35,580 nucleotides of DNA from a virus: UHGV virus genome UHGV-2170436; one strand, 5' to 3'. The notes beneath the pieces are model-generated. The model saw only the letters and a list, made by a program, of their open reading frames with translations. It ran no database searches and had not been told where the DNA came from. The translations under genes and the position numbers were made by a program. Positions 1,452-35,580 of the stretch are shown here, in pieces. The stretch's first letter is position 1, and every line of letters begins with the position of its first letter.

Positions 1452-1487
1452 GCCCCTATCGTTATAATACGCGGTAGGGGCGTTTTT
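1452..1487 (+). terminator. Rho-independent terminator candidate
   Basis: Stem gcccct/aggggc with 18-nt loop followed by gtttttgttt, directly after the 1024..1437 gene. Confidence 0.5.
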
Positions 1488-1500
1488 GTTTGGAAATGGT

Positions 1501-3180
1501 ATGAAAACTAAACTGTATTCGTATATTCGCTTCTCGTCTATGCGTCAGAATGATGGTTCGAGTTATGAACGACAAATCAGGATGGCTAGAGAGATTGCGG
1601 TAAAGTATGACCTTGAACTGGTAAATGATTATCAGGATCTGGGTGTATCTGCGTTTAAGGGTGCTAACTCCAAAACAGGGGCGCTATCTCGTTTCCTTGA
1701 TGCAATAGGTAGATCCGTTCCTGTTGGTAGCTGGCTATTCATCGAAAACTTGGACCGTTTATCCCGTGCCGATATTGTCAGTGCGCAGGAGTTATTCCTT
1801 TCAATCATCCGTAGGGGGATAACCATTGTTACTGGCATGGATAACAAGATCTACTCGCTGGATACTGTTACCGCTAACCCGATGGACCTGATGTTCTCCA
1901 TCCTTTTATTCATCCGTGGTAATGAGGAAAGCCAGACTAAGCGCAATCGTACTAACTCAAGCGCACTGATTAAGATTAAAGCTCATCAAGAAAATCCACA
2001 AAATCCGGCTGTTGCAATCGAGGAAATTGGAAAGAATATGTGGTGGACTGATACCACATCTGGTTATGTGCTTCCTCATCCGGTCTTCTTCCCTATTGTT
2101 CAGGAAGTTGTGGAATTACGCAGGAATGGACGGTCAACCGCCGAGATACTGGATCACCTTAACGCGACATACACACCACCACCAGCCGCAAGTCACAAGA
2201 GGCATTCAAACTGGTCACGGGCAATGATTGAAAGGTTGTTCCATACCCGCGCTTTGATTGGTATCAAGGAAATCTCTGTAGATGGCGTTAAGTATGAGTT
2301 AAAGGATTATTATCCTCGTGTGCTAGATGACGCTGAGTTTTATCACCTTAAGAAAAGCATTGGTGTTAGAGCATGTAACTTTGGAGACAAAGAAGAAGTT
2401 AAACCTATTCCCTTGCTTAGTGGTGTTGGTCTATTGAAATGTGAACATTGCGGTTCCGCTATGGTTAAGGTGAAAGGAACAAACAGACGGCCTAACCAAT
2501 ATCGTTATTCATGCGATGCAATGCGCTCTAGTCGTATTGAATGTGTGCATACAAACTGGAGTTTTCGCGGCGACCAATTAGAGAAAGCTGTATTGCAATT
2601 GCTGGCTGATAAAATCTGGATTGCTGAAGATAAGGCTAATCCGGTTCCGGCTTTGAAAGTACAGATTGATGAAATATCACGCAAGATTGATAACCTGATT
2701 ACCCTTTCTGCTATGACAGGAGCAACGAAGGAGCTAGCCGATCAGATTACTACCCTCAATAGCGAGCGTGAAACACTCTACAATCAAATTAAGATGGCAG
2801 AAGAGGAAATGTATTCTGTTGACTCTCAAGGCTGGGAGAAGCTCGCAGAATTTGATTTAGAAGATGTTTACAACGAGGATCGCATTAAGGTCCGGTTTAA
2901 GATTAAGCAAGCTCTAAAACGGATCGGGTGTAGCAGGATTGACAAGTACAAAAACTTGTTTGTACTGGAATACATCGATGGCAAGACCCAGAGAGTTGTA
3001 ATAGAAAATTCAAGAGGACCGAGGAAAGGCCGGATCTTCGTTGATTTGAAGACTATCAATGATAGGCAGATTCTGGAGAGTAACGGGCTTGTTCTGCATC
3101 CATGTTTAGACATGCTGACAGATAAGAACTGGAAACCAGAAGAAGAAATACCAGGTCCATTACAAGAATTTGGAATTTAA
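1501..3180 (+). CDS. large serine recombinase (putative integrase)
   Basis: N-terminal resolvase catalytic motifs (YIRFSSMRQ with nucleophile Ser; ENLDRLSR), central recombinase domain, Cys-rich zinc ribbon (CEHCGS...YSCDAMRSSRIECVH) and coiled coil. ORF track starts at 1486; Met at 1501 gives the canonical MK..Y.R.S N-terminus. Confidence 0.9.
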   Translation: MKTKLYSYIRFSSMRQNDGSSYERQIRMAREIAVKYDLELVNDYQDLGVSAFKGANSKTGALSRFLDAIGRSVPVGSWLFIENLDRLSRADIVSAQELFLSIIRRGITIVTGMDNKIYSLDTVTANPMDLMFSILLFIRGNEESQTKRNRTNSSALIKIKAHQENPQNPAVAIEEIGKNMWWTDTTSGYVLPHPVFFPIVQEVVELRRNGRSTAEILDHLNATYTPPPAASHKRHSNWSRAMIERLFHTRALIGIKEISVDGVKYELKDYYPRVLDDAEFYHLKKSIGVRACNFGDKEEVKPIPLLSGVGLLKCEHCGSAMVKVKGTNRRPNQYRYSCDAMRSSRIECVHTNWSFRGDQLEKAVLQLLADKIWIAEDKANPVPALKVQIDEISRKIDNLITLSAMTGATKELADQITTLNSERETLYNQIKMAEEEMYSVDSQGWEKLAEFDLEDVYNEDRIKVRFKIKQALKRIGCSRIDKYKNLFVLEYIDGKTQRVVIENSRGPRKGRIFVDLKTINDRQILESNGLVLHPCLDMLTDKNWKPEEEIPGPLQEFGI

Positions 3181-4463: not shown

Positions 4464-5147
4464 TTAAACGTATCTCATGCGCGATTTAATGTGCTTATTA
4501 ATGTTCTTAAGCATCATTTCCTCGTTGCTTTCCCACGATCCTAGCGTCGAATAACGAGTAGAAATTTTATCCGACTTAACGGCAACAATTCGCTTACTCT
4601 GTTTCTGGATGCGTTTCTCTAAGCGACGTTTTGCCACCGCCGATCCATTCCTAGCGCGTTTGGTTCGGGATTTCTTAGGCTTGTACTTCTTCATGATAAA
4701 AGTTCCTTCCTTGTTTTCTACCTTGATGAAGTTGCCGTTTTCGATGTTACGCATCATCTTACCGCCTTTGATGGCCTTAATGTTCCCGTGGGCGTCTAAG
4801 ACCTTACCGTTAGCGATTGGCACTAGCTTATTGATTTTGCCACCATCGAAATAGTGTTTCAGATAGTCATCCTGACTGCCGATCTTCTTGTCCTTATCCC
4901 TTGCGCCCTTGATGAAGATTTGGTGTCTCGTCCCTGATCGGTTCTTGTAGTTGGTATTACCTACAGCTTGTTGAGTCCATCGAGTAGGTCTATCAACATT
5001 CTTGTTAATCTTCTTCTGGAGTGCTCTGGAAGCAAAGATCGCCCCTTCCCCTAGTGCCCTTTCGAATGTATCGGTTGCCTTTTCAGACCATTGCCGTAAC
5101 GCTTTCTTAGTCCTTAGAGCGTTTCGTTTATTGGTACTGGTTGCCAT
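4464..5147 (-). CDS. hypothetical highly basic protein
   Basis: Lys/Arg-rich 227-aa ORF; function not inferable. Confidence 0.4.
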   Translation of the reverse strand: MATSTNKRNALRTKKALRQWSEKATDTFERALGEGAIFASRALQKKINKNVDRPTRWTQQAVGNTNYKNRSGTRHQIFIKGARDKDKKIGSQDDYLKHYFDGGKINKLVPIANGKVLDAHGNIKAIKGGKMMRNIENGNFIKVENKEGTFIMKKYKPKKSRTKRARNGSAVAKRRLEKRIQKQSKRIVAVKSDKISTRYSTLGSWESNEEMMLKNINKHIKSRMRYV

Positions 5148-5148
5148 G

Positions 5149-5319
5149 TTAGCCCCCTAATAACGAAAAGACCCCCGCCAGTGTCCTTAGCAATTGTTCA
5201 TCCACGGTCATAGCCGGGAGTTCAAGCCCAAAGGACGTTAGCAGAGGTCTAATAGCTACGTTATAAGTGAGGGCGACAATCAAGAGATAACCAAAATATT
5301 TCTTAAGTTTATTCTTCAT
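5149..5319 (-). CDS. small membrane protein (56 aa), holin-like candidate
   Basis: ATG at 5319 with AAGGGGTG RBS; single hydrophobic helix YFGYLLIVALTYNVAI; stop abuts the start of the 4464..5147 gene. Below ORF-track cutoff. Confidence 0.35.
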   Translation of the reverse strand: MKNKLKKYFGYLLIVALTYNVAIRPLLTSFGLELPAMTVDEQLLRTLAGVFSLLGG

Positions 5320-5337
5320 ATATTCACCCCTTTATTA

Positions 5338-5720: not shown

Positions 5721-8700
5721 TTAAGAAACAGTAATACCCGTAGTAGCTTTTTTAGTTACCATTACAGTTAAATCACTGATCCATGTGCTAGGCGTCCAGT
5801 TGTTGATTGCGCTTGATTGCACTTCAAAGGTCAAGGTCACAGCACCTTTACCCGCTGGCATATCAATAACACCTGAGTAAAGACCAGTATTACCGCCATA
5901 CGCCCTATTATACAACTCTGACCCATTCTTACGAACAATCAGGCGACAGGTGTCGTAATAGGTATTATTGTTCGACCCTTCACGCGCTCGCAATCCACCA
6001 AAACTAATTGCCGGAATAACGATTTGACGATCGAACTTGTGATCATCTTCAACGCGAACGGTTACTGTACCTTGCGGATAGCCACCATAACCATTATCAA
6101 CGTTAACATCACGGTGTGGGAACTTACGACCAATCACCTTAACGAAATCACCCTTAACCTGAGTAGCTTCAAGCATACCCTTAATAACACAGCTAGAGTT
6201 AATCGTGACGTTGTTCAGAGTACCGGAATCAGCCGTGATATTACCTTTAACGGTAGCGTTCATGAACGTAGCACTACCGTTCTTATTGATATGCCATCCG
6301 GTAGATCCGTTCCAGTTGGAAGACTGGATATAGTTACCGATTTTAGCGTTATCAATTGCGCCATTTACAATCTTGGCGTTGGTGATCGCGCCGTCTTGGA
6401 TTTTCGCTGAATTGATCGCAGCATTGCCAATTTTAGCCGTGGTGATACTAGCATCAGTAATCTGTGCTGATCCGATTGAGGCATTACGAATCATCGCATT
6501 ATCGAGATAAACCTTGTTACCTTCGATACCAAACGGGCAAACATCGGTCCCGTTCTGCGGAGCTACAGCAATTTTATCAGCCGTAAAGATGATTTTAGTC
6601 GGTTGTGCCGGATCGTTAGTTGCGCTCATGTGAATGCCAGCCACGCGACCATCTGCATTAACTGCTAGATTGTATTTGCTGTTAATGGTTCCCTTCAAAG
6701 CATCGATCTTAACGTCCGCTTCCTGATTCACACCAGCAATCTTGCCATCCATTTCTACCCGAACTTGGTCAATCTTACTTGCGCTTGCTGCTTCACTGGT
6801 AGCAATAGCTTGTTTCAGGGTTGTAGCGGAGGCGCTAACTTCTTTGGTGATATCGCCTTTCAGTTCAGCTTTAACCTGATCAATCTTAGTTGAACTTGCC
6901 TTATCACCAGAAGCAATCAGACTCTTTAAGGTATCGGCTGAGGCTTGAACAGTTTTACCCGTCTCGGTAGTGATTTGCTTATGCATTGCATCAATTTTAG
7001 CATCGGCATTAGCGCCAGCTTGAGCAATAGCATCAGCGATGGTTTCATCTAAGCGATCTTGTAAACCAATCAGGTCTTCCAGTGCTTCTTTGTCCTGATC
7101 GTCCCAGCTAATGGTAGATTTCATTTGCATGAAATACGGTTCAGACCAAACAGCATCATCCATACCGAAAATATCGTAGTGAGCACCACGGATATAATAA
7201 TCACCGTCAGCAATATCAAAGGAAGTATGGCTAACACTATTCGTGCTTACTGCCCTTGCATCTGAGAAAGTGTTGTCGGTTGCATACTGGATGATTGACC
7301 CTGCATAGTCATGTTCTACGTCATCCGCCCAGCTAACAAACGCAGTATTAAAGCCACCACGCGCACTAAAACCTTTCATTGGCTTATGTTGTGGGTTGAT
7401 AGCCACTAAACGCGCTGGGGCGCTCTCTGAGTTGTTATAGCCCTTAGCTGATACTTCTACCGTCAGTTGACGCGAAAGGCCGTTAAACTGGTTCATATCA
7501 AGCGTATAAGTCCATGATTCAGGATCGCGGGTACGGTACTGAATAGACTTACCAGCCTTGTTAGTCACCTTGATAATGTATGCTTCAAACAGGTCACTAA
7601 ACTTGTTAGTTTCACCGTTGATCATCACATCTAATTGTTGCTGGTTTTCCCATTCGATAATCAGATCATTACCTTCGAAAGTTCCTGGCGTGCTACCCTG
7701 ATTTTTGATTCGAATAACCGGAGTCGGCAATTCATAGGTAACGGTAGGATTCTGGTTAACCAGTTCTACCCAATCGGATCGCGCGATGATACCGAAAGCA
7801 CAAACTCGGTAATCGTAGGAACGATCTTTTGCCAGTGCATTGACACTGAAAATTTGCTGTGAAGTCTGTCCCAACTTAATCCAGTTAGGTGATCCGCTTA
7901 CACGGTAATCAATCTGGAAGCCGTAGCGGTTAAAATCTTCCGGTGCATCCCATGTCAAAGTAACGTTTTTACCGTAAATCGTCTCGCCAGTTGCCTTAAT
8001 TCTGAAATTAGTAGGCTTCTGTACTGTCATTGAATCCGGTAAACCACTTGGTCTATTGTCTGGAGTTGCCGCATAGTTCAGGTCAGTATAAACCTGAGAA
8101 TTATATTCTGTAGCGGTGATAGTCATCATCCCAGCAATACCAGAATCAATAGAACGATCAATTGCGGTAATACGCCAAAGTGAATTATTCAGTTTCAATT
8201 CATCATAGGTTACGCTGATAACGTCCCAAACTTCGGCAGTGAATGCGTCAGTAGTCATAAAGCTGATAACCTGAGTGATACGAGATTTATTTCGTTCTAC
8301 ACTCGCAAGTTTATCAATCTGGGCTTTAGACTTAACAAAACGATATTCAATATCTTTAGCGATAATTCGACCATCTTGACGAATAGTAGCATCGTTTTCA
8401 GCATCAGCCGGATAACGTAGCATTTGCTCGGAATAGTCAATTGATGGTTCCTGATACATCGCGTTAATGGTATTGAAATAACCGTTAGTGCCACCTGTTT
8501 TCAGTGATACCTTACCCATCATGATATTGTCTTCATTGAAGGTATGCTTAACAATATCAGGAGCATCCAGTTTCAGGGTAATTCTTCCGAAGGATTCGAA
8601 CATCACCCCGCCGAAAGTCTGCATAAGGCTAGTTAAGTTCTCTTTAAAGCTGGCGTTCGGATCACATGCACCGTTTGAATGCAAATCCATCTGGCGTACT

Positions 8701-9497
8701 TGCTTACGTACTTTCAGGAATGAATCAACGTTAATGTTTTCAATTGGTACGGATAAGCCATATTTTTCATTTGTTAGGTAGTGGAAAATCTGGTCCACGC
8801 CGTTAGTGCTAGCCTCAATAGCATTGGTTTCAAGGTTACGAATCTTTAAGCCCATAACATCGACTGCCACTTGGCTATTTGGTTGAAGGATATCAACACC
8901 AGCAGCAAGAGATTTGTCATCACGACGTAACACAATACACATGGTTGCAATGCCGTTACCCTTGTAAGCATCGGTCCAGTCTGAGCCTAAATGCTGTTTT
9001 GCCAGTGACAAAGCGGTGTTAGGATTCTTACCCGTGCGGAACTCAACCTCCAACACTTTCCGGTATTCTTCTTTAATGTTGCCCTTATCGAGAATGCCAT
9101 CACGGATCGTCATGTTCTTACCAACAAGAACATTTTTATTATCGATAAACAGTGCTTTGTAGTGGTCGATTTCACCCTCTGCTACAGCGAAGATTTGCAC
9201 TAACTTATTGTTTTCTCTTTTAGAAATTGCTTTGTAAACGCAGTTTGTACCAGTACGGGTAACACCGAAAAGAACGGGTAATACTGTCTTCGGATCGTTT
9301 GATGTTCCTAGTGTCACCGCATTATCTGGGCTTTGTACTTTAGGTGTTTTTGGTGCGCCTACAGTGGAAGCGATCAAGGTCATTGCACCAGCAGCCATAC
9401 CGATAGCGACTGCGGTCATAACAGAAAATGTTGCGGCTGCCGCCATCCCCGCCGAAGCACCAGCGATCACCGCGCCTACCAATATTTCAAATCCCAT
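5721..9497 (-). CDS. central tail fibre / host specificity protein (lambda J-like C-terminal receptor-binding domain)
   Basis: C-terminal ~170 aa closely parallel the lambda J receptor-binding end as I recall it (SGTLNNVTINSSC..., VEDDHKFDRQIVIP..., IDMPAGKGAVTLTF..., MVTKKATTGITV); size 1258 aa; position after M/L/K-like genes. Confidence 0.85.
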   Translation of the reverse strand: MGFEILVGAVIAGASAGMAAAATFSVMTAVAIGMAAGAMTLIASTVGAPKTPKVQSPDNAVTLGTSNDPKTVLPVLFGVTRTGTNCVYKAISKRENNKLVQIFAVAEGEIDHYKALFIDNKNVLVGKNMTIRDGILDKGNIKEEYRKVLEVEFRTGKNPNTALSLAKQHLGSDWTDAYKGNGIATMCIVLRRDDKSLAAGVDILQPNSQVAVDVMGLKIRNLETNAIEASTNGVDQIFHYLTNEKYGLSVPIENINVDSFLKVRKQVRQMDLHSNGACDPNASFKENLTSLMQTFGGVMFESFGRITLKLDAPDIVKHTFNEDNIMMGKVSLKTGGTNGYFNTINAMYQEPSIDYSEQMLRYPADAENDATIRQDGRIIAKDIEYRFVKSKAQIDKLASVERNKSRITQVISFMTTDAFTAEVWDVISVTYDELKLNNSLWRITAIDRSIDSGIAGMMTITATEYNSQVYTDLNYAATPDNRPSGLPDSMTVQKPTNFRIKATGETIYGKNVTLTWDAPEDFNRYGFQIDYRVSGSPNWIKLGQTSQQIFSVNALAKDRSYDYRVCAFGIIARSDWVELVNQNPTVTYELPTPVIRIKNQGSTPGTFEGNDLIIEWENQQQLDVMINGETNKFSDLFEAYIIKVTNKAGKSIQYRTRDPESWTYTLDMNQFNGLSRQLTVEVSAKGYNNSESAPARLVAINPQHKPMKGFSARGGFNTAFVSWADDVEHDYAGSIIQYATDNTFSDARAVSTNSVSHTSFDIADGDYYIRGAHYDIFGMDDAVWSEPYFMQMKSTISWDDQDKEALEDLIGLQDRLDETIADAIAQAGANADAKIDAMHKQITTETGKTVQASADTLKSLIASGDKASSTKIDQVKAELKGDITKEVSASATTLKQAIATSEAASASKIDQVRVEMDGKIAGVNQEADVKIDALKGTINSKYNLAVNADGRVAGIHMSATNDPAQPTKIIFTADKIAVAPQNGTDVCPFGIEGNKVYLDNAMIRNASIGSAQITDASITTAKIGNAAINSAKIQDGAITNAKIVNGAIDNAKIGNYIQSSNWNGSTGWHINKNGSATFMNATVKGNITADSGTLNNVTINSSCVIKGMLEATQVKGDFVKVIGRKFPHRDVNVDNGYGGYPQGTVTVRVEDDHKFDRQIVIPAISFGGLRAREGSNNNTYYDTCRLIVRKNGSELYNRAYGGNTGLYSGVIDMPAGKGAVTLTFEVQSSAINNWTPSTWISDLTVMVTKKATTGITVS

Positions 9498-15597: not shown

Positions 15598-18500
15598 TTA
15601 TTTAGTTGCTTTGAGTTCGGCAATCTCTTTAGTCAATGCTTCAATCTTAGCTTGATATTTGGCGTCCATTTCCTGAATAGCTTTAATAATCAAGGCATTA
15701 ACAGCAGAGTTAGAAATAGTCTTAATTGCTTCCGGTTGTTCTGGATCTTCGGTGGATTGAATACCTACTGCTTCCGGCAACACTTCTTCCAGATCCTGAG
15801 CAATAATACCTACTTCGCGTTTAATCACTGTGTCATCTGAAAGAGATTTAACTTTATCGTAGGTGTAGACTTTCAGGGAGTTTACTTTCTCTAATGCGCC
15901 GTCCTGTAATTCTTCCTTGTTAATCTTCAAACGGGAGTCAGAGCGAATGTAAACATCGTTAAAGCTACCGTTACGACCTGCGGTAAAGTCACCATCCATA
16001 GTAAATTCCCAGCGTGCTTGCTGCCCGTTGGCGTTATCGCCACGCATACGGATAATACCAGTACGCCAACCGTGAGTCGAACCGCTACCCGTCCAACCAA
16101 ACTCGAAGGACTGACGATAACCAACATCACCTAAGTTACTATAGCCAGCGATAATAGGGAAATATGCACCAGACCCCTTAATACTATCCATGTTAACCAA
16201 GAATGGAGCACGGTCACGAGTTACATCAGAGATATCGGAATAACCTAAACCATTTTTGTTAGCAACAACAACACGACGGTTAAAGGTAATGCCGCCAGAT
16301 GTGTGACGAACAACATTAACGTTATTAGCGTAGGTATCAAGGACACCATCACCGTTTTGTTTAAATCCAGTATCACTATCGCCTAAAACAATAGAATTTC
16401 CACCCAATCCGTTAGCAACACCAACACCAAAACCGCTATTAAACTTAGGAATGGTTGCATCCTGACTAATAGACAGTTGGGGAGCGTTAATTTTACCGTT
16501 TACGCTAAACTCGATTGCGGTAGTACCAGGACCGCCAGCACGCTGTGTGTAGAAATGCCAGCCGCTTTCATCTGCGCATTCTAATACTTGTTTACGAGTA
16601 TCATTACCCCATGCACGAATATTGAAGCTAGATTGTCCGGTATTCTTACCCCATCTCATTTGACCAGCAACTTCAAGATCACCTAAGAAATATGCCTTTA
16701 GTCCACCTGTAGCCATATTACGTTCGGTGCTGAAATGGCGACCTTTGCTGTCTTCGAGGTATAAAACGTTATCACGGGCGTTGTTGCTATCGCCCCAATG
16801 ATTAAATCGAATATAATCACGCGATCCAGAACGCCCAGCGTCGAAAGTCAAAAAACCTTTCTTAATGTAAACGTCATTACTAAAACGAGCGGCACGGCTT
16901 GCACGTTCTAACGTTAATGCATCTTCGTTACCATCACCGCCTAATTGAACGTTACCGGAAGTCAGATCATAAATGAATGGTCGATAAGTATTCCAACCAC
17001 CAAACTTATCGTTTTCAGCCGTTGACAGAAGATAAACTTTTGCGGAGTCATTGCGCCAAAATGCACCATAATTGCCGTAAATCATACGGAATGCATTTGA
17101 GTTAGCAGCTACATACTCGCCGTTTGTATATACAATTTTAGTTGCACCAGTGGTAATAGAGCATTGACCGTTAGCTTCTAGCTGAAATGAGTTTTTCCCC
17201 TGATCGCTATACCATTGGAAGTTATTTGTTTCAGCACTACCAAAACCAATCCAACCTTGACGAGCATTAGCACCATTGCGGCGGTCTTGCCATTCAATAT
17301 AGTTTGATTGATTACTAGGACGCTCTAATCTAAGAACGTTTTGTCCGGCATCAAATACACCTTTACCAGTAAACATGGTGCGACCAGTGATTCGTAGAAC
17401 TTCGCTAGAATCGGTAGTACCAGTCGCTAAACGATAAACGTTACCTTGAACAGTTTCATGCCAGATTGTTTCTGCGGCTTTACTACGGAATTTACGAAGA
17501 TATTTTTTACCAGTACCTGAATCGTTATTCAAACTGACAATATCATATGTACCCTGTCCGTTATTATCAAACATCAACGTTCCGGCCTTGTTTTCGGTGT
17601 TGAACATTGTAATAACACGTCCATCTGTAACACCAGTAGACGGCTTAACGTTAGTCATAGCTGGGGTGTCATGAACAGTCAGTGAAACACCGCTAGTCTT
17701 ACCATATTCGACAATAACGTTATCAGTATAACGACCGTAGTTAACGTAAATGTCGTAGTTATCACCGGAAGTATTAACCGCAAATACTTGATGAACGTTC
17801 AAAGAGTTTCGACGATAAGCAGCAATACTAACGCCTTTCGGGTTATTGTTACCGGAACGGATAACAATTTCAAGGAAATCAACCTGATCATAGGAGTTAA
17901 CGTTATAACCATTACCACCGAAGATACGAAGCATTACCATACGACCATTTTGTGGGATCGTAGCCGTAGCAATCTTGAAATAAGCACGGGATTCACTACC
18001 AGAAGGAACAGACATTGTGACATTTTTAATAAACATCTTATCAATTTCGCCTTTGGTATATGCGCCAATTTCAGCAGGAGTCGGTTTATCCCCTTCGTGA
18101 TACATTTTATAGCTAAACGCTTTTTGTCCCTGAGCATCAAAACCATAGGTTTCAACACGAGATCCGCCAGACGCATAACGGAAAGTAAATCCTCGACCAT
18201 GCGCTTTACCGGAAGAGTGAGGAACGTTAAGGGTTAGATCCATGAGTCCATCTTGACCATTGGTACGGAATGCACCGAAGTAATTAAGATCTCTCGCGGT
18301 TGAATCTTCCAGATAGTTACCAGTCTTGCTATACAAATACGCGCCGTGATAGGTCTTTGTGTTCTTCTTGATATATGCTGCGTTAGCACTACCTTCAATA
18401 CCATCAATTCGCTTGTTGGCGGCTGTAATTGCGGCATCGGTCGATGATTTGTTCTGGTCTACCTTGTTGTTAATAGCGGTATGGTTACTATTCACAGTGC

Positions 18501-19206
18501 CAGTAAGGTTACTGATTTTAGTATCAGCATCTTTCTTGTTGTCGGAAACGACCTTTTCAATCGCTGTTTTGTTAGCTGCAACCGTGCTAGTTAAGCTAGA
18601 AATTTTGTTATCTGCATCGGTTTTATTTGCAGTAACAGTTTTAGTTAAGTTGCTAACGTTGGTGTTAGTGGTATTAACCTTGTTGTTAATCGCGGTGTTA
18701 TTGTCAGTGACCGTTTTCGTTAAAGCTGCATGTTTGCTATCTGCATCAGATTTGTTTGCGGCAACGGTTCTTTCAATTGCGGTCTTATTCGCAGATACGG
18801 TCCCCGTAAGGTTATTGATCTTAGTGTCGGCATCGGTTTTATTTGCCGTAACTGTCTGGGTTAAGTTACTAACAGTGGTGTTGGTAGCATCAATGCGCTT
18901 ATTGGTTGCGGTGTCTTTAGCGGTAATAGTCTGATTCAGTTCAGCTTTAACACTAGCCAGATTATTAGCGGCCTCTTGTTTGTTGGAAGCAATAACACGG
19001 TCAGTGCTAGTTTTATTCTGGTCTACTTTCGTGTTAAGTTCAGCGTGTTTTTCTGGAGAAACAGAGATTTGAACTACTGCGTTATTTTTATCTTTGGTAT
19101 ACAGAACGTGATCAGCAAGGTTAATAGCCAATTCACCCTGTGATAATTGTTCCGGCGTTGGTTTTTTACCAGCCGTTTGTGTGCGTTTAAATTGGATTGA
19201 TTGCAT
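15598..19206 (-). CDS. long (side) tail fibre protein with C-terminal intramolecular chaperone domain
   Basis: 1202 aa; N-terminal repetitive NKTDADTKI..LT.TV shaft repeats; C-terminus SDSRLKINKEELQDGALEKVNSLKVYTYDK matches the autoproteolytic chaperone (S74-type) signature of endosialidase/T5 pb1-type fibres. Confidence 0.8.
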   Translation of the reverse strand: MQSIQFKRTQTAGKKPTPEQLSQGELAINLADHVLYTKDKNNAVVQISVSPEKHAELNTKVDQNKTSTDRVIASNKQEAANNLASVKAELNQTITAKDTATNKRIDATNTTVSNLTQTVTANKTDADTKINNLTGTVSANKTAIERTVAANKSDADSKHAALTKTVTDNNTAINNKVNTTNTNVSNLTKTVTANKTDADNKISSLTSTVAANKTAIEKVVSDNKKDADTKISNLTGTVNSNHTAINNKVDQNKSSTDAAITAANKRIDGIEGSANAAYIKKNTKTYHGAYLYSKTGNYLEDSTARDLNYFGAFRTNGQDGLMDLTLNVPHSSGKAHGRGFTFRYASGGSRVETYGFDAQGQKAFSYKMYHEGDKPTPAEIGAYTKGEIDKMFIKNVTMSVPSGSESRAYFKIATATIPQNGRMVMLRIFGGNGYNVNSYDQVDFLEIVIRSGNNNPKGVSIAAYRRNSLNVHQVFAVNTSGDNYDIYVNYGRYTDNVIVEYGKTSGVSLTVHDTPAMTNVKPSTGVTDGRVITMFNTENKAGTLMFDNNGQGTYDIVSLNNDSGTGKKYLRKFRSKAAETIWHETVQGNVYRLATGTTDSSEVLRITGRTMFTGKGVFDAGQNVLRLERPSNQSNYIEWQDRRNGANARQGWIGFGSAETNNFQWYSDQGKNSFQLEANGQCSITTGATKIVYTNGEYVAANSNAFRMIYGNYGAFWRNDSAKVYLLSTAENDKFGGWNTYRPFIYDLTSGNVQLGGDGNEDALTLERASRAARFSNDVYIKKGFLTFDAGRSGSRDYIRFNHWGDSNNARDNVLYLEDSKGRHFSTERNMATGGLKAYFLGDLEVAGQMRWGKNTGQSSFNIRAWGNDTRKQVLECADESGWHFYTQRAGGPGTTAIEFSVNGKINAPQLSISQDATIPKFNSGFGVGVANGLGGNSIVLGDSDTGFKQNGDGVLDTYANNVNVVRHTSGGITFNRRVVVANKNGLGYSDISDVTRDRAPFLVNMDSIKGSGAYFPIIAGYSNLGDVGYRQSFEFGWTGSGSTHGWRTGIIRMRGDNANGQQARWEFTMDGDFTAGRNGSFNDVYIRSDSRLKINKEELQDGALEKVNSLKVYTYDKVKSLSDDTVIKREVGIIAQDLEEVLPEAVGIQSTEDPEQPEAIKTISNSAVNALIIKAIQEMDAKYQAKIEALTKEIAELKATK

Positions 19207-19286: not shown

Positions 19287-20120
19287 TTAGTATTCGCCGA
19301 AATCGATCCGGTCAGTCTTAGCCACTGCGCCAATTTCGCTAGGTGTCGGTTTCTCGTTTGTAGAATAGACTTTAATCCATTCAGATTTACCGTTTTCCTG
19401 AATATTTCGGACGCGTAAACGCGGTGCGCCAGAAGTATTACAGGTTAATTGCCATGCGCCATGCTCATTAGCTTGAAGATGAATTAACGATGTATCAGCA
19501 CCATAAGGGTTAGTGCTAGCAGTTCCCTTGTAAGTTACGAAACGGTTTCCTGTCAGAGATTCACTATCAATAGGACCACTGAAAGGATTTACACCAGCAC
19601 CGATACCAAAATCACCCTGACGTAAGATCCGGCCTTCGGTAGCAATACCCCTTGCCAAAATCCCGCCATCTGGTTCAAGTTTAAATTCCAGTGTTACAGC
19701 TTTGTTATCTGCGCCACGGGTTTTGTGACTAGTGACATAAGCGTCATAGATGACATAGTAACCAGTGTTAGCAGCACTATAGCCAGAGTTCACAACATAG
19801 AACATACGGAAGCGTAAAGGTGTTTTATCCTCTACCGCTTTCATCAACATTGCTTGATGTTCATCGTCAAGAACACGGTTTAATGTGAGTGTTGTCGGTT
19901 CCAGTCTACGATAACCAGCAAGTTTCCCCGTAGCGTCCTGATCGTACTCTTCCAGAGTTTCTATCTCTGTGGATTCGGTTAGCGTAGGGAATGCTGCGAT
20001 GTTCTCCATAGAACTAAAGCTAGGATCGAAAAAGTCGACCTGATTGTCTATCTGGTTAGAGATCGACACTTCAACATGTGATCCAGTGAAAATATCTAAG
20101 TTATCTTGTGTAATATTCAT
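19287..20120 (-). CDS. tail protein of uncertain role
   Basis: C-terminal KVYSTNEKPTPSEIGAVAKTDRID resembles an internal segment of the long tail fibre (KMYHEGDKPTPAEIGAYTKGEID). Confidence 0.4.
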   Translation of the reverse strand: MNITQDNLDIFTGSHVEVSISNQIDNQVDFFDPSFSSMENIAAFPTLTESTEIETLEEYDQDATGKLAGYRRLEPTTLTLNRVLDDEHQAMLMKAVEDKTPLRFRMFYVVNSGYSAANTGYYVIYDAYVTSHKTRGADNKAVTLEFKLEPDGGILARGIATEGRILRQGDFGIGAGVNPFSGPIDSESLTGNRFVTYKGTASTNPYGADTSLIHLQANEHGAWQLTCNTSGAPRLRVRNIQENGKSEWIKVYSTNEKPTPSEIGAVAKTDRIDFGEY

Positions 20121-20129
20121 TATTACCCC

Positions 20130-20552
20130 TTAAAAACGCGCTAGATAAGAAAATTTAAGGCTAAGTGTCCCAACGATACCCCCATCACTAGAATCATCGT
20201 CATAATCGGTATTAGAGGCTACTGGAGTGATATCTGAAATAGAGAAGCCCAAATCTTTAAAACGTGGGTTATCCGGCTGAATCTGGATTATCTGGCAAAT
20301 ACCCTCATGGATTTTTGTTTCATGAATCTGAGAATATAATTGCATTTCGATAACGCATTCAGCTTGCATTGCATTACCACCACGGACCCTAGTGTAAGTC
20401 TCATTCATGCCAGTAATCCAACAAACCACGTCATCACTAAAACCTTGCTGAGTTTGTTCTACGTTTAAAGCCAGACCTAAATCTTGTTCGATAATATCTT
20501 GCAAGGCGCGTTTGATTTTCAGTCTAGGCATATTATTAACGGTAGCGAGCAT
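20130..20552 (-). CDS. hypothetical head-tail joining/completion protein
   Basis: Start set at ATG 20552 with AGGGGG RBS; position between capsid and tail genes. Confidence 0.35.
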   Translation of the reverse strand: MLATVNNMPRLKIKRALQDIIEQDLGLALNVEQTQQGFSDDVVCWITGMNETYTRVRGGNAMQAECVIEMQLYSQIHETKIHEGICQIIQIQPDNPRFKDLGFSISDITPVASNTDYDDDSSDGGIVGTLSLKFSYLARF

Positions 20553-20826
20553 GTGTACCCCCTGCCAGAGTAATAAAGCAATCAGTGGTATTATCACCAT
20601 TGCGCTTAACGTATTGAACTTTGAAACGCTGGTTTTCTACAATGACAATATCACCCTGATTTAAGTCTCCCTCACGACAGAATAGAAATTCGGTTTCTGT
20701 CATTACCCCCGATTCGTCGGTAGTAGTAATTTCATGATAAGCACGAATTGATTTACCACCTTCCACCGAAAATACAGGAGCACTCTTAAACATTCTTGAT
20801 AATTGTGATTCTGATAATTTGAACAT
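20536..20826 (-). CDS. hypothetical head-tail connector protein
   Basis: Start set at ATG 20826 (MFKLSESQL...) with AGGGGG RBS; first gene after the capsid terminator. Confidence 0.35.
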   Translation of the reverse strand: MFKLSESQLSRMFKSAPVFSVEGGKSIRAYHEITTTDESGVMTETEFLFCREGDLNQGDIVIVENQRFKVQYVKRNGDNTTDCFITLAGGTHARYR

Positions 20827-33905: not shown

Positions 33906-34263
33906 TGGTTATCCTCCATTAAATTTGCGTAATTTTATTTATTGGTTTTACGCACAATCTAAGCGCCTAAATCGCATTCTAACGAAGGGAAAGATCCAGT
34001 AATGGTAAGGGCTAGGAAGTGGGTTAATAGTCGCGTAGCGACCGCGCTAGGACTGCACTGATCACGTTTTAAAATCTCACACGCGTATCAAATACCGGGG
34101 TGCCGAAAACTCCCTTTATCTCATCCGTGGAACAGTACCTTTTTAATTTGTCAAGCATTAATTTCTTAATTTAATTACTAAATCTCATCCCAATAATTGA
34201 AAAAATATCAAAAATCAATAAAGTAAGCATCTAAAAGTCAGTCCATACCAAAAGAGGTATAAA

Positions 34264-35058
34264 ATGAAAAACATTATCGCTGCTATCGTGCTTTCTGCTA
34301 CTGCTTTCGGTGCTGATGCTGCGTCCTTTGATTGCACTAAGGCTACTACCAAATCAGAGAAGTTTATTTGTGCTAATGAGTCAATCTCCGCACTGGATTC
34401 TAAACTTCATGAAGTATATGTTAAGGCTGTTAAGATTGACCCGTCGCTTAAACAAGAGCAACGCAACTGGAATAAAACTGTTCGTGATACAATGATCAAT
34501 ATCGGGCAGATTCAGCCACTGGAGGCTGTATACAACGCTCAAATCCAAAACTTGATGAACGTATTATCTAAAGAAGAAACCGCGTCAGAAAGCGATTCAG
34601 AGACTTCTGCGAAGGTTGAAGAAGAACAACCGAAGGCAGTAGAAACTCTAAAAACCAAAGAGAAACAAGTTGTTCTGGAAAAGTCCCCAAATAGCAACTT
34701 CGTATATATTTGTCCGAAAGTAGTTAAAATAACCACAATTGACGGACTGAGTGTAGAAGATCGTGATATAGTGAAAGAAAACACAAAAATTGTAATCGAT
34801 AAAAACAAAGACAAGGCAAAACTTCTAATTTCTGGAACGATGCACCCCCCAGTTGTAGTGGAAATGAATATTGACGCTGATGGATTCATGTCAAAAACTA
34901 CTAAAACTGGTGTAGAGTTATACGCACAACACGGAAAAACATATTCCGGTGATAAGATGGTTGATGATGTAAGAACACTGGACTATCATCATATTTATGT
35001 TGACAACCGTACCGGAAAGGAAATCGAATGGAAATATTCTTGTGTAGAGAAAAAATGA
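34264..35058 (+). CDS. secreted DUF1311 (LprI-like N-terminal domain) protein, phage moron candidate
   Basis: Signal peptide MKNIIAAIVLSATAFGADA; motif FDCTKATTKSEKFICANESISALDSKL..Y matches the DUF1311 Cys-x-Ala...Glu...Cys...Leu-Asp pattern. Confidence 0.55.
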   Translation: MKNIIAAIVLSATAFGADAASFDCTKATTKSEKFICANESISALDSKLHEVYVKAVKIDPSLKQEQRNWNKTVRDTMINIGQIQPLEAVYNAQIQNLMNVLSKEETASESDSETSAKVEEEQPKAVETLKTKEKQVVLEKSPNSNFVYICPKVVKITTIDGLSVEDRDIVKENTKIVIDKNKDKAKLLISGTMHPPVVVEMNIDADGFMSKTTKTGVELYAQHGKTYSGDKMVDDVRTLDYHHIYVDNRTGKEIEWKYSCVEKK

Positions 35059-35256
35059 TAGAGGCGACATAATACAATCAGAGATAGTTAAACGCCCGAA
35101 TATTACTAGTTAGTTCCTAAGTTCATTTCTTATGGTGTTAATTGCGACTCAGTTGCTATAGAATTCTTCTAATTCATTGATTCTATAGCCCTGTCCTTGT
35201 GATGGGGCTTTTTATTGCAAAATTTTTAGTTATTTTGGGTTGACTACATTCGGGTT

Positions 35257-35559
35257 GCCAATTCGCCTGGCTAACTCTTGCTGAGTGATTTCTGACTGTA
35301 AAAAAGCATTTAACAGCAATACCTTAGAGGCGACGCTCAAAGGTACTTCAATAAAGTGATCATGACTATTTAATGGCGAAGGTAACGGGATAAGCTCGTT
35401 ATCTTCAAAATAAAAATCAAATGCGGTCAGTAAAGCATCTTTTGCCGCTTCCATCGCTTCAGCGACAGTTTCGCCCTGCGTCAACGCTTCAGGGATATCC
35501 ACAAAAGAAACCATATAACCGCCTTCCGGCGCGGGTGTAAGAGTGACGGGATAACGCAT
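35257..35559 (-). pseudogene. hicB: hicB antitoxin gene, 3'-truncated (HTH domain lost)
   Basis: MRYPVTLTPAPEGGYMVSFVDIPEALTQGETVAEAMEAAKDAL fits the HicB N-terminal signature; the HTH begins at ...ITQQELARRIG and is replaced by NPNVVNPK-stop encoded by AT-rich DNA. Confidence 0.65.
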
Positions 35560-35580
35560 AATTTCGACTGTCTCTCGCAT

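Follow-up and report, generated by a model that had tools for sequence, protein, structure and literature searches.

The last gene of an Escherichia coli prophage, at 34264..35058 on the plus strand of the 35,580-nucleotide UHGV virus genome UHGV-2170436 (the whole of which is referred to here as the window), encodes a predicted secreted protein in which a constant DUF1311/LprI-like domain is joined to a polymorphic beta-barrel. The DNA of the constant part is nearly identical to that of a gene of virulent T4-like phages, and the barrel is exchanged as a sharply bounded cassette. The 264-residue product, which starts at an ATG, is named 'lysozyme inhibitor LprI family protein' in RefSeq (WP_001569808.1). 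We tentatively favour its interpretation as a putative periplasmic exclusion or immunity factor directed against components of incoming phages, with the barrel setting specificity, and regard this as possible rather than probable.

The open reading frame (ORF) is a real gene, because its product matches PHROG 14799 (function not assigned) over its full length (E=1e-109) and the ratio of nonsynonymous to synonymous substitution rates (dN/dS) is 0.03-0.35 across both gene halves, consistent with purifying selection. All homology and selection signal lies on this plus-strand ORF, and a minus-strand ORF at 34539-34889 was dismissed for this reason. A foreign origin judged from guanine-plus-cytosine content was also unsupported (38.5% in the gene, 41.8% in the prophage and 40% in the Krischvirus loci described below). 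A Shine-Dalgarno sequence, AAGAGG, is present at 34252-34257, 7 nucleotides 5' of the ATG. The N-terminus of the protein, MKNIIAAIVLSATAFGADA|ASFDC, combines a basic n-region with a hydrophobic core and an A-x-A site, and was predicted from hydropathy and sequence to be a Sec signal peptide (residues 1-19, 34264..34320) cleaved between A19 and A20, after ADA; the putative cleavage site was placed with the -3/-1 rule. The block AASFDC is invariant in the family alignment, and a regular-expression search of the first 35 residues for the lipobox [LVI][ASTVI][GAS]C gave no match in any of the 21 family members. The A-x-A site and the missing lipobox together predict that the product is Sec-exported, soluble and periplasmic, and not lipid-anchored.

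Downstream of the signal peptide, PF07007 (LprI/DUF1311) matches residues 24-76 with an E-value of 1.4e-5 and 25.8 bits, against a gathering cut-off of 22, and only positions 1-71 of the 106 in the profile are covered. The profile is matched by 20 of the 21 family members. An AlphaFold2 model built on the 21-sequence alignment has helices at residues 30-37, 39-58, 62-80 and 83-105 (predicted local distance difference test score, pLDDT, of 67-84 for the block). The Pfam match, these helices and an invariant pair of cysteines, C24 and C36, define a DUF1311/LprI-like helical domain at residues 24-105 (34333..34578). It is followed by an acidic linker of ~37 residues rich in E, K and S (residues 105-141, 34576..34686), which is predicted to be disordered from its composition and a pLDDT below 50, and which holds the recombination breakpoint described below. 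The remainder of the protein is a predicted eight-stranded antiparallel beta-barrel of ~118 residues (145-262, 34696..35049; block pLDDT 76-91), in which Cys150 of the first strand and Cys260 of the last are conserved; a second AlphaFold2 model, of the type-C variant of the family, likewise has a beta-rich and confident C-terminal domain. Disulfides C24/C36 and C150/C260 are likely. An earlier note on this DNA, made from the sequence alone, had proposed a signal peptide and an LprI-like N-terminal domain, and both were borne out. Its unassigned C-terminal domain of ~150 residues is indeed without a family match, and is better described as the linker plus the predicted barrel.

In passing the PF07007 gathering threshold, in its predicted periplasmic location, in its helices and in its conserved cysteine pair, the window protein resembles ScwA and Etsi4, and known members of this family act on periplasmic cell-wall enzymes or toxins. 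It differs from typical members, which have four conserved cysteines (PMC7933661), in matching ~71 of the 106 profile positions, in having no second cysteine pair in the N-terminal domain, in carrying an orphan polymorphic barrel attached to that domain by a disordered linker, and in being phage-borne.

The constant module of the gene, at 34258..34634 (377 bp, plus strand), comprises part of the ribosome site, the signal peptide, the DUF1311 domain and the first part of the linker. It is 92-97% identical in nucleotide sequence to a gene of virulent T4-like Krischvirus phages, present in ~59 records in all, including RB49 (RB49p262) and JSE (JSE_00265). The ends of the module are sharp: it starts 6 nucleotides before the ATG and stops in the linker after EEEQPK (34634/34635). 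Among prophages that, like this one, are inserted in hicB, it is 96-99% identical. Between prophage and Krischvirus, the synonymous divergence (dS) of 0.07-0.27 and the dN/dS of 0.07-0.35 point to a recent common ancestry with purifying selection.

In Krischvirus, and also in metagenomic T4-like relatives at a greater distance, the gene is invariably found between gene 52 (topoisomerase) and the holin gene t, within a run of small early-region ORFs. Directly upstream of it in Krischvirus, the alignment shows a sequence, TTGACA-N17-TAAGAT, that we took by eye for an early-type sigma-70 promoter. From this fixed position we infer that the family is at home in T4-like phages and that the temperate phage is most likely the recipient. 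Klebsiella and Aeromonas T4-like phages and one lambdoid coliphage also encode secreted DUF1311 proteins of 230-270 residues, with unrelated, two-cysteine C-terminal domains. Downstream of the gene in Krischvirus-like loci, the ORF right before holin t has weak or faint Pfam matches of the Tad2 (anti-Thoeris) kind (6906-7154 of locus L026, 5960-6208 of L028 and 2933-3178 of L030). These matches hint that the early region from 52 to t is an island of counter-defence and competition functions.

A megablast search of window positions 10000-34200 against phage records found no other similarity besides a tail-fibre segment at ~80%. The side tail fibre (15598-19206; 1202 residues) has gp34-trimer and S74 chaperone domains, and over ~1.8 kb (16523-18319) it is ~75-80% identical in nucleotide sequence to RB49-like gp37, the distal subunit of the long tail fibre. 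This common segment shows that the prophage group and Krischvirus encounter each other in shared hosts. The fibre tips differ strongly among sister prophages.

The second half of the gene behaves as a cassette. In hicB prophages the block that varies extends exactly over 34635-35169 (plus strand) and covers the remaining linker, the barrel and 110 nucleotides of 3' flank; it is replaced as a whole, and both flanks are 96-99% identical. The same is seen among virulent phages, where RB49 and JSE are collinear over 10 kb at 98% and 91% identity save for a gap of ~350 bp that corresponds to the barrel alone. We grouped the barrels by eye from the alignment into six types. The hicB prophages carry types A (the version in the window, found in 6 of 5426 complete E. 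coli genomes), C and F, and virulent phages carry A', C and F at the syntenic position, making three types (A, C and F) common to the two lifestyles. The type F genes of a prophage and of a virulent-phage contig are 94.9% identical in nucleotide sequence along their full length, which indicates that exchange between lifestyles has occurred more than once. Within a barrel type dN/dS is 0.03-0.30, and the diversity of barrels comes from module replacement, not from rapid point mutation. Site-specific shuffling or a diversity-generating mechanism was considered and is unsupported: a repeat search found no meaningful repeats flanking the cassette, the differences involve whole modules, and members of one type are under purifying selection. 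Among the eight window ORFs scanned, which do not amount to an exhaustive search of the window, neither a reverse transcriptase nor an invertase was seen. Tail-fibre tips, CdiA-CT and Rhs proteins likewise combine a constant N-terminal module with many alternative C-terminal ones, joined at a sharp breakpoint, in near-identical genomes. Unlike in those systems, there is no evidence here for a virion protein or a toxin, no co-varying downstream immunity gene and no flanking recombination-site repeats.

The barrel itself is an orphan in sequence searches. The C-terminal half has no match in Pfam, NCBIfam, PADLOC or PDB sequences, a domain search that the earlier note had proposed as a check; NCBIfam gave no match to the protein as a whole, and PDB sequence and profile searches with both domains gave nothing meaningful. 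With the C-terminal domain alone as query, a word-index search for homologues gave no hits, and matches in BFVD were to uncharacterised phage proteins only. An exhaustive profile search with the type-A barrel against 1.84 billion representatives returned 6 matches. Two of these, P0022 and P0026, are low-complexity repeat proteins and were rejected as spurious, and the true relatives are fragments, P0006 and the standalone P0024. The last is a protein of 143 residues (483-914 of locus L020, a 1-kb contig from Logan SRR8048118) that lacks a DUF1311 domain, its near-identical signal peptide (MKNIIATIVLSLTAF...) leading straight into a type-A-like barrel. This architecture indicates that the barrel can, as predicted from P0024, exist alone as a secreted unit. 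As far as these searches reach, the type-A barrel is a sequence orphan and nearly unique.

Proteins that recognise a variable partner typically show localised allele turnover of this sort. Since the protein is predicted to be exported, that partner would be in the periplasm or at the envelope, and the pattern suggests a role in phage-versus-phage competition. We favour an exclusion or immunity function on account of the cassette turnover, the precedents for DUF1311 proteins and an analogy with Spackle (gp61.3) of phage T4. According to this proposal, the protein would act in the periplasm as a safeguard against outside proteins that attack the envelope. The likeliest targets would be components of superinfecting Krischvirus-like phages, for example a penetration protein or a cell-wall hydrolase associated with the tail. 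A common activity or anchoring would come from the constant DUF1311 domain, and the polymorphic barrel would decide which incoming partner is recognised. A prophage with a captured copy would shield its lysogen from the virulent phages the gene came from, and this shielding would drive allele turnover on both sides. As to precedents, the DUF1311 protein Etsi4 of enterohaemorrhagic E. coli rescues cells from Etse4, a periplasm-acting type VI secretion system (T6SS) effector (PMC12981562), LprI-domain proteins are predicted to be orphan immunity proteins beside lysozyme-like T6SS effectors (PMC9796082), and ScwA acts on the amount of MltD (PMC7933661).

Like Spackle, which is encoded in the early region of T4, members of the family are small proteins with a signal peptide, predicted to be periplasmic, and they have their home in the putative early region of T4-type phages. 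Spackle blocks the gp5 tail lysozyme of a superinfecting phage, thereby causing superinfection exclusion. The two differ in that the Spackle family (PF25676) was found by Pfam search in T4 Sp and not in the window protein or RB49p262, and in that Spackle is a single 97-residue domain at a different genomic position and is not known to show cassette polymorphism. Speaking for the analogy, the syntenic 61-41 region of RB49, the single 18-kb region checked, contained no homologue of Spackle. T4 gp61.2, the neighbour of Spackle, was considered as a possible DUF1311 protein and rejected, as it is AdfA. The functional analogy with Spackle is offered purely as a hypothesis. A more ambitious version of the proposal, to which we give rather little credence, is that the family is an allelic system for superinfection exclusion, so far undescribed, in RB49-like (Krischvirus) phages. 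It would be the functional counterpart of Spackle, with alleles repeatedly captured by a temperate lineage to immunise its lysogens in a three-way arms race.

Several results weigh against a function in exclusion or immunity. No direct computational link to any target was found, and PADLOC returned noise only (E=0.0055, 14 bits). Comparison of the barrel with prophage fibre tips, the gp37 end and the immediate downstream Krischvirus gene revealed no partner locus. Barrel type varies independently of the tail-fibre tip in prophages, as the tips of two type-F prophages are only 8-32% identical, and of the end of gp37, which is ~91% identical between RB49 and JSE while their barrels are different. 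The gene just downstream in Krischvirus encodes ~95 residues and has two diverged alleles that are ~50% identical (5777-6064 of locus L003, 5825-6106 of L004, and equivalents). Across five barrel types one allele accompanies E, D and C and the other A' and F, which is not a one-to-one correspondence. The DUF1311-barrel family has no sequence relation to Spackle, and the absence of Spackle from RB49 noted above concerns only one 18-kb region. Klebsiella Marfavirus has a secreted DUF1311 protein, and a member of the genus also has a weak Spackle match annotated 'spackle periplasmic'; with both present in this genus, the DUF1311 family and Spackle are not simple alternatives. Finally, the promoter candidate in the prophage is a weak consensus match, and expression in the lysogen is therefore putative.

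A related explanation, which we judge unlikely, is that the product is an orphan immunity protein against bacterial toxins that act in the periplasm, such as lysozyme-like or amidase T6SS effectors or colicin-type hydrolases, with barrels matched to polymorphic effectors and the prophage protecting its lysogen. Polymorphism is typical of toxin-immunity pairs. Etsi4 neutralises Etse4 in E. coli (PMC12981562), and LprI-domain proteins with signal peptides are present in T6SS islands as predicted orphan immunity genes (PMC9796082, PMC12135965). However, the home of the family is an early gene of virulent T4-like phages whose position is conserved across divergent members, and protection from T6SS during a short lytic cycle would be of little obvious value. 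No effector gene was present near the gene in any locus examined. In addition, in the known cases the DUF1311 protein is itself the immunity factor, whereas here DUF1311 is the invariant part.

The invariant N-terminal domain would suit a conserved host target. The protein might be a ScwA-like modulator of host cell-wall enzymes that would bind or stabilise endogenous lytic transglycosylases or hydrolases and remodel the sacculus in the phage's favour, for injection, lysis timing or envelope integrity. ScwA of Salmonella is a free periplasmic, disulfide-bonded protein consisting of DUF1311 only; it raises the levels of MltD without conferring protection from lysozyme, and its overproduction lyses cells (PMC7933661). 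However, E. coli cell-wall enzymes are conserved, and such a function gives no account of the many alternative barrels in near-identical phage genomes. We consider it improbable.

The database name would suggest a true inhibitor of animal c-type lysozyme, as in Mycobacterium tuberculosis, that aids survival of the lysogen in the gut or in phagocytes. In M. tuberculosis LprI (Rv1541c), a lipoprotein, DUF1311 is accompanied by an additional MliC domain that was shown to be sufficient for lysozyme resistance, and for the PF07007 domain there is no experimental evidence of lysozyme inhibition (PMC7933661). The window protein differs from LprI in having no lipobox and no MliC match, with an A-x-A signal peptidase I-type site instead, and the architectural parallel between the two is a lead only. 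Neither Pfam MliC (PF09864) nor any other C-terminal family was detected in the 21 members at E<=10. The SGxxY loop of MliC and PliC inserts into the lysozyme active site (PMC8334348), and a regular-expression search found this motif in none of the 21 full-length members or 12 barrel sequences. In fold, the barrel is no closer to MliC/PliC than to generic barrels: designed barrels and lipocalins score equally well or better, Cap15 is resembled equally well, and sequence identity to the compared structures is 5-15%. The closest match within the MliC/PliC family, PhiA, also has no SGxxY and does not inhibit lysozyme in vitro. Membership of the MliC/PliC family is not supported by these data, and since SGxxY and a Pfam MliC match are absent and the fold likeness is non-specific, 'lysozyme inhibitor' is an annotation, not a finding. 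A conserved eukaryotic target would also sit poorly with a hypervariable barrel at home in lytic phages, and we regard this function as very unlikely.

Receptor masking of the Llp or Cor kind, by which the protein would bind the periplasmic face of the outer-membrane receptor of the phage's own tail fibre and block re-infection, draws on the fact that both the gene and a tail-fibre segment are common to prophage and Krischvirus, and on the distance of only ~3.3 kb between the gene and gp37 in RB49, as exclusion genes of this kind are often near receptor-binding genes; however, Llp and Cor are outer-membrane lipoproteins and this family has no lipobox, and barrel type is independent of the fibre tip in the type-F prophages and in RB49 and JSE as described above, making this highly improbable.

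The gene is the last of the prophage and ends ~190 bp from the host junction at 35248/35249. Homology to E. coli K-12 begins at 35249, and the host DNA (35249..35580, minus strand) is the 5' part of hicB, annotated as partial in RefSeq, which was cut by the insertion. HicB is interrupted after ~residue 101 of 138, inside its C-terminal DNA-binding (helix-turn-helix) part. The insertion removes ~37 C-terminal residues of the antitoxin, and the neighbouring toxin gene hicA is intact (7752-7906 of locus L002); in 14EC029, one genome that has this prophage, hicA is annotated as frameshifted. The loss of HicB autoregulation in lysogens may have consequences. The prophage is siphovirus-like, with a large serine recombinase, a lambda-J-like tip protein and the side tail fibre described above. 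The recombinase, at 1486-3180 towards the opposite end of the window, has Resolvase, Recombinase and zinc-ribbon domains and is presumably the integrase behind the intragenic insertion in hicB; the left prophage junction lies outside the window.

The position of the gene is that of an accessory cargo slot. The backbone adjoining it is present in 64 of 5426 complete E. coli genomes and the DUF1311-barrel gene in 26, with ~38 of the 64 backbone-positive genomes having no DUF1311 gene. In E. coli PigCaeca_2, a sister prophage with the same backbone is inserted in ycdX, which is also truncated, and its terminal slot holds an unrelated gene of 101 residues (5020-5325 of locus L027), whose product has no signal peptide; homology to the window backbone stops at ~34155. 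Because this sister prophage, the one such prophage examined, has a different gene at the same position where backbone homology ends, the designation of the window gene as a terminal moron, as the earlier note had it, is supported, and the terminator-like hairpin described below points the same way. In E. coli C325, a degraded copy of the prophage has kept an intact type-F gene beside the truncated hicB. In this remnant (5937-8771 and 20007-20774 of locus L018), IS3 abuts a truncated capsid gene, with no tail genes after it.

The plus-strand gene that the earlier note had described was upheld by its ATG, Shine-Dalgarno sequence, full-length PHROG match and purifying selection, and so was its place by the host junction. 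The expression signals and neighbours claimed for it were upheld in part. A hairpin followed by a T-run at 35187..35217 (plus strand) resembles an intrinsic terminator and is strong (hairpin 35187-35209; 9-bp stem, 5 G-C pairs), and it sits in the right flank, whose sequence is conserved whichever cassette variant is present. Just 5' of this hairpin, a perfect 10-nucleotide inverted repeat, GCTATAGAAT...ATTCTATAGC (35155-35164 and 35180-35189), straddles the right boundary of the cassette at 35169/35170. The region upstream of the gene (34156..34263, plus strand) is specific to the cargo and, apart from the Shine-Dalgarno sequence, contains a single promoter-like site, the sigma-70-like TTGAAA-N16-TAAAGT at 34197-34224. 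This matches the consensus at 9 of 12 positions, and promoter-like sites in the region are at chance level (6 found against 4.8 expected). On the far side, the truncated hicB was as described, and the small terminase said to border the gene is weakly supported. This divergent phage gene (33351..33905, minus strand), part of the conserved backbone, runs opposite to the moron and encodes a product with a helix-turn-helix-like N-terminus and matches the small-terminase PHROG 57 (E=4e-12). Since this is its single match, with none in Pfam or NCBIfam and a RefSeq name of hypothetical protein, and since it is 6 kb from the gpA-type large terminase, with a Rha-type regulator and others between, we treat 'small terminase' as a tentative label for a possible function.

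The gene was already annotated by domain in RefSeq and UniProt, and searching the literature turned up no paper about the phage family. That virulent and temperate coliphages exchange genes, or that prophage ends harbour accessory genes, is no surprise by itself. Three features seem not to have been described before: an orphan polymorphic barrel fused to DUF1311, its sharply bounded cassette replacement, and a near-identical module common to virulent T4-like and temperate phages. The database name 'lysozyme inhibitor LprI family protein' rests on a domain with no demonstrated inhibitory activity, which is a warning for its use. If the favoured exclusion function is correct, RB49-like phages, which are common in therapeutic coliphage collections, would gain a defined exclusion factor with predictable allele specificities. 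The secreted DUF1311 proteins of a lambdoid phage and of Escherichia, Klebsiella and Aeromonas T4-like phages would acquire a role, and the prophage would defend its host with a gene taken from the virulent phages that threaten that host. Function aside, the locus is a clean natural case of domain-cassette exchange between virulent and temperate phages.

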